20,000 nt of DNA from an uncultured virus (IMG/VR IMGVR_UViG_3300046170_000428) (taxonomy: Duplodnaviria > Heunggongvirae > Uroviricota > Caudoviricetes): the IMG/VR virus record IMGVR_UViG_3300046170_000428; one strand, written 5' to 3'. This document shows, piece after piece, positions 4,035-12,895 of the stretch (position 1 is its first letter; every line of letters starts with the position of its first letter). Below the pieces are notes generated by a model. That model saw nothing but the letters and a program-made list of their open reading frames with translations, had not been told where the DNA came from and did not search any database. A program made the translations under genes and the position numbers.

Positions 4035-4231
4035 TAGAAGCATTTATAATAAGTTTTATTGCATCATTTATGGTAGATAATATTGAATTTTTAAATATTA
4101 AAAAACAACAGGAAGAAGCTGGATATGTATGGGTTTATAAGCCCAAAGCTAGAGATCCTAATTTACCTGCAGCATTTCCTATTAAAAAACCAGATGGTTC
4201 AGAAAGAGTATTATGGGTTCTTGAAAAATAA
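4031..4231 (+). CDS. Small hypothetical protein with hydrophobic N-terminus
   Basis: ATGA and TAATG coupling on both sides; AAGGA upstream. Confidence 0.6.
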   Translation: MIEAFIISFIASFMVDNIEFLNIKKQQEEAGYVWVYKPKARDPNLPAAFPIKKPDGSERVLWVLEK

Positions 4232-5397
4232 TGTTGCCACCTATTCCGGGTACGACATTTAATTGTTCAGCTAAGCACGGATATCTTTGTATTAAACCCA
4301 TGGGTAATGTATTGCCATGTTGCCGATGGAAAGACTTTGAACCTCCATTAGATATGTTCGAGACTTTTGAAGATATTTTAGATTATTATCAAAGGATTAT
4401 TCATACTCCAAGTAAAGTTTGGCCACAGGGTTGTTCCTCATGTCATCGTGATGCTTCTAGTTCTACATGGAGTATGATGAACACTATAAACAAAACGATT
4501 GAACGAAGTGGTAACACTATTCAGTATTTAGAAATCGGTTTTGATAATGTTTGTAATATGAACTGTGTTATGTGTAGTCCTCAATATAGCAGTCGATGGG
4601 ATAAGATTGTTAAAGATAATAAAGAATTTTTAAGTAAATATAATTTAAAAGAATATAATAGTCCACCTTCAATATATGATAATATTATGCGTTTACTAGA
4701 AAGTAGCGATTTATCGCGACTTAATACAATTAGAATTATGGGTGGCGAACCCATGTATAGTAAAGCTTCATTAAAATTTTTAGAATGGTTTATGGACAAA
4801 GATGTAAGTAATATTGAATTAATGTTTAATACTAATGCTACAGTATTTCCTACGAAATTCGTAGACTTATTTAAAAGATTTAAATGCGTCATTCCAAAAA
4901 CTTCGATTGATAGTGTTTATGAAATCGCCGAATGGGGAAGAAATAGTCCCATACCTTTTAAAAAAATTGAAGAAGTGGTTGGTTCGTGGAATGAATATGC
5001 AAGACAAAATAATAATGTTAAATTAACATGCTTTAGTACAATTACTTTAGCAAATATAGAACATCTTGGTGCTTTGTCAGAATGGTTAAATAATTATGAT
5101 CAATATGTAATTAGACAAATAGGACTTGTTCACGCGAATAATTACATAACACCTTTAGCACTTTCAAGAAAAAACAGACAGCTATTATGGCAAGAACAAT
5201 ATACTCGTTATGATGATATGAAGCTATTTGTAAATTATGAAACATTTTTAAATGCACATCAACTAGAAGGTTATCCAGTAAAAAATATTATTGATTATAT
5301 TGAATGGTGGGATACATTAAATAATAATAAATTTAAAGATCTATCACCAAAAGTATGGAAAGCGATAAATAATCTTTATAAAAAGGAGAACAAATAA
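4231..5397 (+). CDS. Radical SAM protein with N-terminal SPASM/twitch-like Fe-S domain
   Basis: CxxxCxxC motif (CNMNCVMC), GGEP, FNTNAT and SID motifs. N-terminal C...GNVLPCC...CSSC precedes the rSAM core. Confidence 0.85.
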   Translation: MLPPIPGTTFNCSAKHGYLCIKPMGNVLPCCRWKDFEPPLDMFETFEDILDYYQRIIHTPSKVWPQGCSSCHRDASSSTWSMMNTINKTIERSGNTIQYLEIGFDNVCNMNCVMCSPQYSSRWDKIVKDNKEFLSKYNLKEYNSPPSIYDNIMRLLESSDLSRLNTIRIMGGEPMYSKASLKFLEWFMDKDVSNIELMFNTNATVFPTKFVDLFKRFKCVIPKTSIDSVYEIAEWGRNSPIPFKKIEEVVGSWNEYARQNNNVKLTCFSTITLANIEHLGALSEWLNNYDQYVIRQIGLVHANNYITPLALSRKNRQLLWQEQYTRYDDMKLFVNYETFLNAHQLEGYPVKNIIDYIEWWDTLNNNKFKDLSPKVWKAINNLYKKENK

Positions 5398-5953: not shown

Positions 5954-8170
5954 ATGGCAACAGGACATGTTGACACACGACAGTTTTTGTCGGAAACAAA
6001 ATTTTATGAAGGTTACTCTCGGTACATAGATGATGAAAAAAGATACGAAACTTGGAATGAAGCCGTAGACCGTGTTATCAACATGCATGCCGAAAACTAT
6101 AAAGAAAAGGGTAATGAATTAGGACCTTTTCTTGATGAAGCTAAAGAAGCTTATAAAGAAAAAAGAGTATTAGCAGCTCAAAGATCATTACAATTTGGTG
6201 GTGAACAATTGTTAAAACACCAAATGAGAATGTACAATTGTACATCATCTTATGCAGATAGAGCAGAATTTTTTGGTGAAGTATTTTATATTTTGCTTTG
6301 TGGTGCAGGTGCTGGTTTTTCAGTACAAAAACATCACGTTGCTAAAATGCCTAAGATTGCATTAAGAACTAAACAAGCAAAAGGTTATATTGTAGAAGAT
6401 TCAATCGAAGGTTGGGCTTCTGCTATCGATGTACTTATGGCCTCCTATTTTGTAGGTGGAGGTAAGTATCCAGAATTTGAAGGTCGTAGAGTATTTTTTG
6501 ATCTTACTCAAATTAGACCAAAAGGTGCAAAGATTTCTGGTGGTTTTAAAGCGCCAGGACCTGAAGGTCTACGTAGATCATTAGATAAAATTGAGCACCT
6601 ACTTCAAACAGCAGTTATTGATCAAAAAGAACCTATTCCACTTAAGCCAATTAATGTATATGATATTACTATGCATGCCGCAGATGCGGTGTTATCAGGT
6701 GGCGTAAGAAGATCAGCAACTATTTGTTTGTTTTCTCCAGACGATGAAGAAATGATGAATGCAAAAACCGGTAATTGGTTTGTTGATAATCCACAGCGCG
6801 GAAGATCAAATAATTCAGCAGTTATCGTTCGTAATGAAGCCGATAAAGAACAGTTTGCCAAACTAATGGAATCTGTTAAATCATTCGGTGAACCTGGATT
6901 TGTATTCGTAGAATCGACTGAACATACAACGAATCCTTGTGTCGAAATTGGTATGTTTCCACAGATTGATGGTAAGTCAGGTTGGCAAGGTTGTAACCTA
7001 ACTGAAATCAATGGTGGTATGTGTAAGACAGAAGAAGACTTTTATAAAGCATGTCGTGCAGGTGCTATTCTTGGTACAATCCAAGCTGGTTATACTGATT
7101 TCAAATTTTTAGGTCCAACATCTAAACAAATTTTTGATCGTGAAGCACTACTTGGTGTGTCTATCACTGGATGGATGAATCAACCTGACATTCTTTTTAA
7201 TCCAAAAGTCCTAGAAAAAGGAGCAAAGATTGTCAAAGAAGTCAACAAAGAAGTCGCTGCGATTTTGGGGATTAACCCTGCTGCTCGGACTACCTGTGTT
7301 AAACCTTCTGGTAACGCCTCTGTATTACTCCAAACAGCTAGCGGTATTCATGCTGAACATTCCCCAACATATATTCGAAATGTTCAAATGAATAAAGAAT
7401 CTGAAATCACTCAAGCAATTATGAAATCAAATCCATACATGGTTGAAGAGTCTGTATGGTCAGCATCTGGAACAGATGTTGTTGTGTCTTTCCCAATCAT
7501 TCCTCATAAGGGATCTTTAATGAAAGATGAATTGCTTGGTGTATCACATTTAGAAAAAGTAAAATTAGCTCAGAAACATTGGGTTGTTGCTGGTACAAAC
7601 GAAGAACTTTGTGCAGATGAAGGTATTCGTCATAATGTGTCAAATACAATTATTGTCGATGACTGGGCTGAAGTTGAAAAATACGTATTCAAGAATAGAC
7701 ATTCCTTTTCAGGTATTTCGTTCTTATCAATGAGCGGAGATAAAGATTATAATCAAGCTCCAAATACAGCAGTTGTAAATGCTAAACAAATGGTAAAACT
7801 ATATGACGAGGCCGCTATTTTTGCATCTGGTCTTGTTGTTGATGCACTCAAAGTTTATAATAATTTGTGGGATGCTTGTTCAACCGCTCAAGGATATGGT
7901 ATAGATATTTCGGTAGAAAGTTCTGAAAATTCAGCACGTAAAGATTGGAATCGTAGGTTTCAAAACTTTGCAGATAACTATTTAAAAGGTGATGTTAAAA
8001 AGGCCGAACATTGTTTAAAGGATTCCTATATATTACATAAATGGAATAAGATCCAGGCTAATTTAAAACCAATTGAATGGAATACTGGATTGACAGCTAA
8101 AAAATATACAGATGTAGATACTTTAGCCGCAGCCGCTTGTGCTGGTGGAGCATGTGAAATTGACTTCTAA
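5954..8170 (+). CDS. nrdJ: Class II (adenosylcobalamin-dependent) ribonucleotide reductase, monomeric RTPR type
   Basis: RBS AGGAG. Motifs YNC, GAGFSVQ, GGVRRSA, catalytic TNPCVE, CNLTE, TTCVKPSG and C-terminal redox pair CAGGAC. No beta-subunit gene adjacent. Confidence 0.85.
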   Translation: MATGHVDTRQFLSETKFYEGYSRYIDDEKRYETWNEAVDRVINMHAENYKEKGNELGPFLDEAKEAYKEKRVLAAQRSLQFGGEQLLKHQMRMYNCTSSYADRAEFFGEVFYILLCGAGAGFSVQKHHVAKMPKIALRTKQAKGYIVEDSIEGWASAIDVLMASYFVGGGKYPEFEGRRVFFDLTQIRPKGAKISGGFKAPGPEGLRRSLDKIEHLLQTAVIDQKEPIPLKPINVYDITMHAADAVLSGGVRRSATICLFSPDDEEMMNAKTGNWFVDNPQRGRSNNSAVIVRNEADKEQFAKLMESVKSFGEPGFVFVESTEHTTNPCVEIGMFPQIDGKSGWQGCNLTEINGGMCKTEEDFYKACRAGAILGTIQAGYTDFKFLGPTSKQIFDREALLGVSITGWMNQPDILFNPKVLEKGAKIVKEVNKEVAAILGINPAARTTCVKPSGNASVLLQTASGIHAEHSPTYIRNVQMNKESEITQAIMKSNPYMVEESVWSASGTDVVVSFPIIPHKGSLMKDELLGVSHLEKVKLAQKHWVVAGTNEELCADEGIRHNVSNTIIVDDWAEVEKYVFKNRHSFSGISFLSMSGDKDYNQAPNTAVVNAKQMVKLYDEAAIFASGLVVDALKVYNNLWDACSTAQGYGIDISVESSENSARKDWNRRFQNFADNYLKGDVKKAEHCLKDSYILHKWNKIQANLKPIEWNTGLTAKKYTDVDTLAAAACAGGACEIDF

Positions 8171-11499: not shown

Positions 11500-11525
11500 G
11501 AATATTACAATTGAAAAAGGAATAT

Positions 11526-12206
11526 ATGATGGAGTTTATCCATGAAAAAATTGATATGGGATATGTGGACTTGGATCGACGAGACAGCGAAGACGGACGA
11601 CGGTACGTTACGCTTGATGGGAACGCTTACCCTTCTGTTACTACTATACTTTCTATCTTAAGCGAAGAATCTATTGCAAAATGGCGAGCTAAAGTTGGTG
11701 AAGAAGAAGCTAACAAAGTAAGCTTACGTGCAACTACACGTGGTACAGCGGTTCATGCTATTATTGAAAAGTACATGAACAATGATCCAAACTATGCTGA
11801 AGGTTATCTACCTCACGTAGTGCAATCTTTAGAAAATCTTAAACCATTATTGAACAAACATGTCACAAAGGTTTATGCGCAAGAAGTGCCATTATATTCT
11901 GACCATCTTCAAATGGCAGGAACATGTGATGCTGTAGTTGAATGGGATGGAGTACCAACAATAGTAGATTGGAAAACTAGTCGAAGACCAAAGAAAAAAG
12001 CCAATATTGGAAATTACTTCATGCAATTAGCAGCGTATGCTGTCATGTGGGAAGAACGTACAGGTATGCCCATTCAGCAGACTCGTATTGTAATGGACGT
12101 AGATGACTTTCATCCGGTTATGTATAAAGAAACACGTGATGCATGGATTGATAAGATGATTGAAACACGTGATGAATACAATAGACGTAAGTTATTTCAC
12201 GGCTAA
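11526..12206 (+). CDS. PD-(D/E)XK exonuclease (T4-like phage type)
   Basis: Motifs YPSVTTIL, RGTAVH, QEVPLYS, AGTCD, IVDWKTS, YFMQLAAYA. The ATG at 11526 follows AAAGGA (ORF track starts at TTG 11511). Confidence 0.85.
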   Translation: MMEFIHEKIDMGYVDLDRRDSEDGRRYVTLDGNAYPSVTTILSILSEESIAKWRAKVGEEEANKVSLRATTRGTAVHAIIEKYMNNDPNYAEGYLPHVVQSLENLKPLLNKHVTKVYAQEVPLYSDHLQMAGTCDAVVEWDGVPTIVDWKTSRRPKKKANIGNYFMQLAAYAVMWEERTGMPIQQTRIVMDVDDFHPVMYKETRDAWIDKMIETRDEYNRRKLFHG

Positions 12207-12220
12207 ACAAAAAAAAAATA

Positions 12221-12246
12221 AACTATTTTACTAAGTCATTGATTTT
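12221..12246. repeat. 26-bp direct repeat, copy 1, containing an IHF consensus site
   Basis: AACTATTTTACTAAGTCATTGATTTT; the minus strand reads AATCAATGACTTA, matching WATCAANNNNTTR. Confidence 0.75.
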
Positions 12247-12263
12247 CAATGACTTTTTTTTTT
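12233..12263 (+). terminator. Putative intrinsic terminator after the exonuclease gene
   Basis: AAGTCATTGA-ttt-TCAATGACTT (10-bp AT-rich stem) followed by a T run; overlaps an IHF-consensus site. Confidence 0.5.
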
Positions 12264-12283
12264 AAATAAAATGAAAAAAAGTA

Positions 12284-12312
12284 TGTACAAAGCCGAAAAA
12301 ACAGTGTATAAT
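12284..12312 (+). promoter_or_regulatory. Promoter P4 (TGTACA-N17-TATAAT)
   Basis: TGTACA 12284-12289, TATAAT 12307-12312. Confidence 0.8.
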
Positions 12313-12318
12313 ATACTT

Positions 12319-12562
12319 ATAAAATGAAAAAAGGAGATAACAAAATGACATAGCGATAGTAACCACCAAGGTTCGTGATGGAAAAGTTGAGCATTTGAAA
12401 GATTATGTAAGTCTCAGAGTTAGAAGCGGATCGGGATTTACAGGTCAGGATCGACCCAGGGAATCATCGGTGGAGTATAAACAGATCCCCTTATCTTCCG
12501 CGGAGGGGTATACCTATGGAAGATAAGGATGTGTTAGAGAGCCCCTCCACCCCACTTTTTTT
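12319..12562 (+). ncRNA. Candidate structured non-coding RNA or leader with a Met-Thr-stop minigene
   Basis: Lies directly downstream of P4 and has no long ATG-initiated ORF. Visibly GC-richer than its flanks, with several complementary segments, and ends in a T run. Confidence 0.5.
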
Positions 12563-12576
12563 ATGAGGAGAGAATA

Positions 12577-12690
12577 TTGAGATTTATAGTTGTAACATTT
12601 TTAATTTTAGGTTGTTTTGCTGTTGTAGGTATGATTGAAGATCCATGTATTACTGAAGGTTTACCCGCTAACTGTATGGTGCAGAAATAA
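12577..12690 (+). CDS. Small membrane protein, 37 aa
   Basis: GAGGAG RBS at 12565-12570 and TTG start; MRFIVVTFLILGCFAVVGMIEDPCITEGLPANCMVQK*. Confidence 0.6.
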   Translation: MRFIVVTFLILGCFAVVGMIEDPCITEGLPANCMVQK

Positions 12691-12797
12691 TGATTAATTT
12701 TTTATTTGGACTTACGATTGGTATACTATTAGCTTATCATCAACCAGACATGGTTGCTGCTGTCGGTCAGTGGTTTATATCGATTATTCCAAAATAG
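12690..12797 (+). CDS. Small membrane protein, 35 aa
   Basis: TAATG coupling; MINFLFGLTIGILLAYHQPDMVAAVGQWFISIIPK*. Confidence 0.55.
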   Translation: MINFLFGLTIGILLAYHQPDMVAAVGQWFISIIPK

Positions 12798-12814: not shown

Positions 12815-12840
12815 AACTATTTTGCTAAGTCATTGATTTT
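12815..12840. repeat. 26-bp direct repeat, copy 2, containing an IHF consensus site
   Basis: AACTATTTTGCTAAGTCATTGATTTT, 25/26 identical to copy 1. Confidence 0.75.
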
Positions 12841-12866
12841 GTTGAATAAAAAAACGCATTTTTTTG

Positions 12867-12895
12867 TGTACAAACGCGAAAAACTGCTGTATAAT
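12867..12895 (+). promoter_or_regulatory. Promoter P5 (TGTACA-N17-TATAAT)
   Basis: TGTACA 12867-12872, TATAAT 12890-12895; downstream RBS GAGGAG. Confidence 0.8.

Follow-up and report, generated by a model that had tools for sequence, protein, structure and literature searches.

A Double-Pseudoknot RNA Family Predicted from Uncultured Marine T4-Like Myophages and Located behind an Early-Type Promoter

A stretch of DNA of 20,000 nt from an uncultured virus of the Caudoviricetes (IMG/VR record IMGVR_UViG_3300046170_000428; the whole stretch is called the window below) contains at positions 12319-12562 an element free of any clear gene, which an earlier examination of the letters and of their listed open reading frames (ORFs) had proposed to be a structured RNA (the sequence-only reading). 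Comparison of the element with its relatives indicates that this gene-free stretch encodes a real double-pseudoknot RNA, composed of a three-way junction, a pseudoknot named PKa, and a 3′ H-type pseudoknot. On the same comparative grounds, the element is a member of an RNA family with domains of ~190 nt from uncultured marine T4-like myophages, and this family is in none of the RNA catalogues searched. The observation is therefore confirmed, and its earlier interpretation is partly supported. All features of the window described below are located on the plus strand.

The region 12207-12576 is free of ORFs of at least 60 aa and is the longest such gap in the window's ORF list. The GC content is 0.43-0.48 within the element and 0.20-0.33 in its flanks (windows of 120 nt). 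Both properties had been pointed out by the sequence-only reading, and all sequence strings which it listed were found where it had placed them. Folded on its own, the sequence of the element does not stand out (z = -1.83; 11 of 200 shuffles do equally well, which is not significant alone) and, consequently, the case for a structured RNA rests on the comparison with relatives.

Relatives were collected in two ways. An exact 20-mer from the stem retrieved 14 loci of IMG/VR, whose flanks are unrelated to those of the window. A two-part core motif retrieved 62 viral loci, three of which were judged false by eye (L022, L023, and L067), leaving 59, as well as 86 metagenome loci and three loci in a collection of 185,579 species genomes. 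Only one of the latter three is true, that is, contig PCAT01000110.1 (L092) of a metagenome-assembled genome (MAG) of Balneola. This locus belongs with the viral loci L032 and L036 in one lineage, shares with them a tRNA-Arg(TCT) ~1 kb off, and probably represents a phage contig that was binned into the Balneola MAG.

After the removal of duplicates, 75 distinct sequences composed the alignment A2, from which a covariance model of 198 positions (R1) was built. R1 matches 78 distinct sequences from marine viromes and metagenomes, all with E ≤2.8e-25, and rejects all three of the remaining motif-only loci (L093, L094, and L168). In the window, its sole significant match is a full one at 12336-12555 (160.2 bits, E = 8.2e-38). 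Three viral contigs of 69-82 kb carry one copy apiece. No match was found in the R1 scan of the Kyanoviridae phage C48C1, nor by blastn of the window, L021, and L019 versions of the element against 50,697 phage records.

The fold was derived from the RNAalifold consensus and from inspection of the alignment, and it consists of seven helices. The 5′ part is a three-way-junction domain (12363-12473). Its junction helix P1 pairs 12363-12367 with 12469-12473 (CCACC/GGTGG). P2 (12370-12376 with 12426-12432, GGTTCGT/GCGGATC) encloses a variable arm at 12377-12425, and P3 (12435-12439 with 12461-12465, GATTT/GAATC) is followed within the same domain by P3a (12443-12446 with 12453-12456). The loop of P3a, GGATC (12448-12452), pairs with the linker GATCC (12484-12488) and forms PKa. 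The 3′ part is the H-type pseudoknot, in which the 11 pairs of S1 are formed by 12489-12499 (CCTTATCTTCC) with 12518-12528 (GGAAGATAAGG), and the seven pairs of S2 by GGAGGGG (12502-12508) with CCCCTCC (12542-12548). The connecting loop of this pseudoknot holds an invariant GATG...TGA.

In the 75 sequences of A2, standard pairs are found in 95.2% of the 3109 cells of the seven-helix fold. Column shuffles gave 81.7% and none of the 500 attained the observed value, whereas sliding the 3′ partners by 1-3 columns reduced pairing to 33.6-48.5%. Changes on both sides are seen at 26 of the 44 pairs, with a covariation score of 0.353 against 0.136 in the control (attained by 0 of 500 shuffles). In the three-way-junction domain, the helices are 91.5-100% paired and 10 of the 21 pairs show both-side changes; one pair of P3 is A-U in 45 sequences and G-C in 30, with zero exceptions. 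PKa is paired in 98.4% of its cells, three of its five pairs vary on both sides, and its strand pairs include GGAUC/GAUCC, GGAAC/GUUCC, GAAAC/GUUUC, and GGAGC/GUUCC.

Similarly, both helices of the 3′ H-type pseudoknot are backed by covariation. Pairing is 93.4% in S1, where 8 of 11 pairs vary on both sides, and 91.6% in S2, where 5 of 7 do. All 78 sequences can form the S1 stem with at least eight contiguous pairs (21 distinct strand pairs) and the S2 helix with at least six (15 distinct strand pairs). PKa and S2 are absent from the structure of the model, and the evidence for them hence does not depend on the model-fitted alignment. The 11-bp stem and the GGAGGGG/CCCCTCC pseudoknot, which had been read from the window alone, are thus real, and compensatory changes occur in both among the 78 relatives. 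Approximately 50 columns are invariant, chiefly in junctions and loops.

As had been supposed from the letters, the element resembles no catalogued family. Rfam 15 gave no match over the whole window at the gathering score and, at E values up to 10, only chance-level matches, outside the element or unrelated to it, in three divergent members (those of the window, L021, and L116). ARAGORN called no gene in the window, and neither a tRNA nor a transfer-messenger RNA (tmRNA) at the element in 20 related loci (16 + 4). Several further likenesses were dropped, as either no model matched or the consensus did not fit: signal recognition particle RNA (UUUAC-AGGUCAGG), two-piece tmRNA, the helix order of group I introns, a kink-turn in P2, -1/+1 frameshift sites, the bypass of T4 gene 60, and RegA operators. 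Literature searches, including those on pelagimyophage noncoding RNA, returned no description of the motif. For pelagimyophages, the part of the report consulted states that no riboswitch was found with Riboswitch Scanner (PMC7029224). Related marine myophages are reported, in the sections consulted, to carry glutamine riboswitches and two-piece tmRNAs, which are RNAs distinct from the element (PMC9004378).

The element is preceded by an early-type, sigma-70-like promoter at 12284-12312 (TGTACA, a 17-nt spacer, and TATAAT, with TG upstream of the -10; 10 of 12 positions match), in agreement with the earlier claim that it has a promoter of its own. A promoter also stands upstream of it in each of the 39 relatives whose alignment starts at the -10. 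It is followed by an A-rich early leader (12319-12336) with the Shine-Dalgarno (SD) sequence AAGGAG at 12331-12336. Contigs from RNA libraries share 12303-12336 and then diverge into unrelated genes. This is an indication that the first 18 nt with the SD are a generic early leader of these phages, and that the family-specific part begins at ~12337.

A mini-ORF is located between this leader and the fold (12324-12353). Its core is ATG ACA TAG at 12345-12353, it comprises nine codons when counted from the in-frame ATG at 12324, and its stop lies 9 nt before P1. In all lineages, an SD is followed by an ATG, 1-3 further sense codons and a stop, ending 5-9 nt before P1. A script detected the mini-ORF in 84 of 88 true contexts in eight spellings, among them ATGACATAG, ATGTTGTAG, ATGGATTACGGATAG, ATGAGGCGATAA, and ATGACTTGGACATGA; a ninth spelling and the remaining lineage were seen in the alignment, where the lineage missed by the script reads ATGCGGCAATAA or ATGCGGCGATAA. 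The sequence has the layout of a leader minigene, in which an SD and a start are followed after very few sense codons by an in-frame stop, and the position of this stop in the leader is fixed. Given the known footprint of the ribosome, the fixed distance to P1 would place a terminating ribosome against or into this helix. In short-leader relatives, such as L020 (1590-1634, minus strand), a TTG replaces the first ATG of the leader and opens a six-codon ORF, whose TAA overlaps the ATG of the mini-ORF (TAATG) as read in the alignment. This overlap hints at a cascade of coupled tiny ORFs.

In 41 of the 88 true contexts, which have a longer leader, an ORF of 80-85 codons begins with an ATG near the predicted transcript start and spans the whole fold. 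All 32 long-leader contexts with enough flank show this upstream ORF (uORF) ending within -5 to +5 nt of the ATG of the next gene. Three designs of this junction occur, ahead of three different genes: ATGCCTAG in 29 cases, ATGA in two, and TAATTATG in one. A uORF stop placed at the next start is, as far as it can be read from sequence, a signature of translational coupling. The uORF is maintained in these contexts, and indels in the structural elements (-1, -1, and +8 nt; -1 and -5 nt) add up to multiples of three. The window itself has no long ORF and hence no stop/start coupling; one frame is open from 12341 to 12526, with no start codon and with a TAA inside S1.

The long ORF was rejected as a conserved protein. 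Between lineages, indels of 1 nt shift the frame. Among 40 distinct long uORFs, the variable columns are distributed over the codon positions as 39, 41, and 44 of 77, and the codon-like conservation which had been named as an argument against an RNA is not seen. The residue is altered at 55 of 63 variable codon columns, and the product has no match in Pfam or PHROG. Selection appears to act on the translation of the uORF itself and not on the peptide.

The element is always co-oriented with a nearby downstream gene. In most loci, an ORF of at least 30 aa begins 100-118 nt past the core motif, which is ~23-40 nt past S2. In 42 of the 59 true viral loci, the downstream gene encodes a protein of 61-82 aa with two transmembrane segments (MPSPSEIQ...), while the remaining loci have either a small peptide of secreted or lipoprotein-like character (the case of the window) or one of three more unrelated small ORFs. 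In the window, the SD GAGGAGAG (12565-12572) and a TTG-started ORF of 37 aa (12577-12690), which encodes a small protein with signal-peptide or lipobox-like features, represent the first gene behind the RNA. The 37-aa product has no match in Pfam, PHROG, or cultured phages. Neither of two small downstream products queried by tblastn gave a match in the 50,697 phage records, and the searches for a Pfam or PHROG family were equally negative. Its lipobox-like LILGC and a C-terminal EDPCxTEGLxxxC motif are common to products in L026, L062, and L077. A second tiny ORF (ATG, 12690-12797, 35 aa) follows, and the two are coupled through an overlapping TAATG.

Taken together with the mini-ORF and the uORF, the fold may well be a cis-acting leader RNA linked to translation, the function which we favour, at somewhat less than an even chance. 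Ribosomes would load at the strong 5′ SD and AUG. In the form of the window, they would terminate when their leading edge has arrived at the foot of P1, whereas in the long-leader form they would translate through the entire fold and terminate on the start codon of the next gene. The double-pseudoknot fold, either free or bound by a ligand or factor, would set the number of ribosomes or the amount of intact transcript reaching that gene. The regulated gene would be the one for the small membrane or secreted protein (in the window, the TTG at 12577).

Several observations weigh against such a leader. The downstream genes vary, with at least five unrelated families of small ORFs. No expression platform was found, as the downstream SD is outside the fold and there is no conserved alternative terminator or anti-SD helix. 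Likewise, a helix closing the 5′ leader onto the 3′ spacer was not found (mean z = -0.24; 5 of 68 below -2). The persistence of the mini-ORF across ~5 independent spellings is weakly significant (~0.13, an estimate) and on its own is weak evidence, because by chance alone an upstream ATG soon runs into a stop in two of three frames. In two lineages, the RNA is set apart from the following gene: in that of the window by a run of seven T (T7; 12556-12562, 7 nt past S2), and in that of L025 by ~170 nt more of non-coding sequence, a T-run, and a new promoter. In the latter lineage, the GC-rich stretch of ~170 nt (L025 1230-1413, minus strand; also in L050 and L121) contains a long hairpin, GCAGAGTAACG / CGTTACTCTGC, and could represent an additional structured RNA.

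Finally, the sole expression data are contigs from RNA libraries. These are assembled contigs, which can neither show transcript ends nor exclude DNA, so that coverage gaps and contig ends prove nothing about transcripts. A contig of 928 nt (X17) covers 12306-12680 and one of 245 nt (X18) covers 12307-12540, whereas X15 and X16 include pieces or relatives of the element only.

A different function, which we consider rather unlikely but deserving of weight, is that of a stand-alone, trans-acting early phage small RNA, in which the fold would be the functional product, for example by binding or sequestering the ribosome or a protein of the host or phage. The SD and the mini-ORF would then merely stabilise or protect the transcript, and the downstream gene would just share the promoter. 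The presence of the promoter in every aligned copy points in this direction, as does the placement of the promoter-plus-RNA unit before at least five unrelated genes. The T7 after the RNA in the window's lineage and the T-run with its fresh promoter in that of L025 are consistent with a separate transcript, and the ~50 invariant positions and the two pseudoknots exceed the needs of a simple leader. The 245-nt contig is a weak hint in the same direction. On the other hand, most lineages have no terminator and their gene begins 23-40 nt past S2. The terminator scan of the window found sites only at 12233 and 13255 and called no intrinsic terminator at the T7. Moreover, in 41 of 88 contexts the whole fold is held inside an ORF coupled to the next gene, and a stable free RNA is hard to reconcile with this arrangement.

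The element might also be a phage counterpart of ribosome transfer that depends on a short ORF, or a gate that ribosomes translate through, but this is an unlikely proposal which is drawn by analogy. Ribosomes brought in by the strong SD of an ORF of 2-4 codons would terminate against the fold and would then be handed past it in the short-leader form, or would melt it in the long-leader form. The fold would possibly be switched by a ligand or factor and would set the yield of the next gene. To our knowledge, ribosome transfer or gating of this kind is undescribed in bacteria or phages.

A classical riboswitch for a metabolite or ion, with the core of junction and pseudoknot as its aptamer, seems improbable as well. 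The fold is complex, strongly covarying and aptamer-like, it has invariant nucleotides in junctions and loops, and it is positioned in a 5′ leader. Its size and pseudoknotted architecture appear to be within the range of known aptamers. However, the three divergent members showed no match to a riboswitch of Rfam at E values up to 10, the downstream proteins are tiny, without a family, and show no evident functional coherence, and neither an alternative terminator nor an anti-SD pairing was found.

It is very unlikely that the element is a self-cleaving ribozyme or an RNase entry site which separates leader from message. Many lineages have a semi-conserved A(C/A)AGAAUUU after S2, which we take to resemble an RNase E-type site, and an invariant core within a double-pseudoknot fold is a typical feature of ribozymes that cleave themselves. 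Against this, no ribozyme family of Rfam matches.

Still less probable is the interpretation offered by the sequence-only reading itself, namely a two-state switch or attenuator, or a mimic of tRNA-His ending in CCA. The complementary segments on which it was based are present in the window: GGTGGAG (12469-12475) and CTCCACC (12545-12551), proposed to close an 86-nt hairpin, followed by CCA (12552-12554) and T7, and also CCACC-aa-GGTTC (12363-12374) with GAATC-atc-GGTGG (12461-12473). The helix closing the hairpin is paired in 51.8% of cells, which is near the level of the slid controls (33-51%), and mutually exclusive folds lose their basis. As regards the third partner of GGTGG, its CCACC/GGTGG half is retained as P1, whereas the GGTTC/GAATC half, 69.1% paired, is likewise close to these controls, and P2 and P3 form instead. 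In fact, the segments of the proposed alternative helices are occupied by P1, S2, P2, and P3. The acceptor helix and the CCA are not conserved either, and relatives have ACAGAA or AAAGAA after the pseudoknot, where the window has CCCCA-C. The T7 is present in the window as claimed, but it is confined to the window's lineage and absent from most relatives. With alternative helices unconserved, CCA and T7 bound to a lineage, and ARAGORN silent at the element, there is no sign of either a two-state switch or a mimic of tRNA-His.

That the element is a protein-coding gene, degenerate or unusual, is scarcely credible: the window has an open frame at 12341-12526, and 41 contexts keep this frame open over the entire element, but the frame of the window has no start and a TAA in S1, the variation is even over codon positions (39/41/44), Pfam and PHROG gave no match, and perfect long-range covariation, such as that of the P3 pair with 45 A-U and 30 G-C, cannot have its source in coding constraint.

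The genes around the element form a block on the plus strand that includes a ribonucleotide reductase, a PhoH-like protein, and a PD-(D/E)XK exonuclease (11511-12206), and the closest cultured relatives are T4-type myophages. The relationships are mosaic. The reductase is 63.7% identical to its counterpart in a Rhizobium phage (its best cultured relative), and for the exonuclease the best match comes from the Kyanoviridae phage C48C1, at 52.8% identity. A radical-SAM protein with a weak QueE-like match (4231-5397) adjoins the reductase, which is of class II type (5954-8170). The record nearest to the window, G001, stops just short of the element.

Between the exonuclease gene and the promoter, a stem-loop of 10 pairs with a T-run is located at 12233-12255, and a similar terminator-like box recurs near 12825. 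The stem-loop is predicted to terminate the exonuclease transcript and to be the first half of a cassette made of a terminator and an early promoter. Cassettes of a terminator stem-loop and an early promoter, resembling the PeSL type, recur in the window at 12233-12312 and 12825-12895. In the close relative L012 (93-97% identical), an additional cassette of ~220 nt (780-999) with a duplicated promoter is inserted between the exonuclease gene and the RNA.

The element is a large fold in which more than half of the pairs covary, and it joins the few complex phage RNAs without a catalogued family; its carriers are abundant uncultured myophages of the ocean. With R1 (198 positions, 28 nested pairs, and two pseudoknot helices), annotators can label an otherwise empty gap of ~370 nt. 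The two configurations of the fold, behind a tiny ORF or inside a coupled uORF, offer a natural system for the interplay between ribosomes and RNA tertiary structure in early phage control.

Among the RNAs of T4-type phages, the mRNA of gene 32 in T-even phages reportedly has a 5′ H-type pseudoknot of ~30 nt and an unstructured region bound by gp32, which together serve as a translational operator. The likeness lies in a leader pseudoknot in the message of a T4-type phage which is tied to translational control. The two differ, as compared by description only, in that gene 32 has a small pseudoknot and the element is a multi-domain fold of 190 nt before unrelated tiny genes.

The nearest functional precedent for the mini-ORF may be the LEE1 leader of Escherichia coli, in which a two-codon minigene is translated and is needed for optimal downstream expression, according to the part of the report consulted (PMC3262186). 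In both, a long 5′ leader holds a strong AUG which is followed by a single sense codon and a UAG. In LEE1, the placement of the stop with respect to the following gene is important, and the same would hold for the element. In contrast, the account of LEE1, in the same part, describes no conserved double pseudoknot, and LEE1 is a single chromosomal locus, whereas the element is a phage family in which translation of the mini-ORF is predicted.

In the pararetroviruses CaMV and RTBV, a ribosome shunt depends on a short ORF (PMC2241666, in the sections consulted). Similarly to the element, the short ORF terminates near the base of a stable structure, which is followed by a landing region and the main ORF. 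The shunt belongs to eukaryotic scanning, and one long hairpin joins both ends, whereas P1 closes the 5′ domain only. The parallel would therefore be a functional analogy only.

A survey of IMG/VR, the same data source, yielded candidate structured RNAs of 29-151 nt, some of them cis-regulatory and upstream of phage genes (Fremin et al. 2023, PMC10690425). As far as the excerpt consulted goes, these candidates are unnamed and shorter than the ~190-nt element, and a piece of the motif may be among them.

The PeSL cassettes of T4-type phages consist of a terminator stem-loop and an early promoter (PMC2839356 and PMC4122927, in the parts consulted). The window shows the same succession, with the stem-loop at 12233-12255 and then the promoter at 12284-12312, and the promoter-plus-RNA unit is likewise found in different gene contexts. 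On the contrary, in these parts the PeSLs are presented as regulatory and recombination modules at the level of DNA, with no long structured RNA. A shuffled cassette of the PeSL type would explain the varied contexts of the unit.

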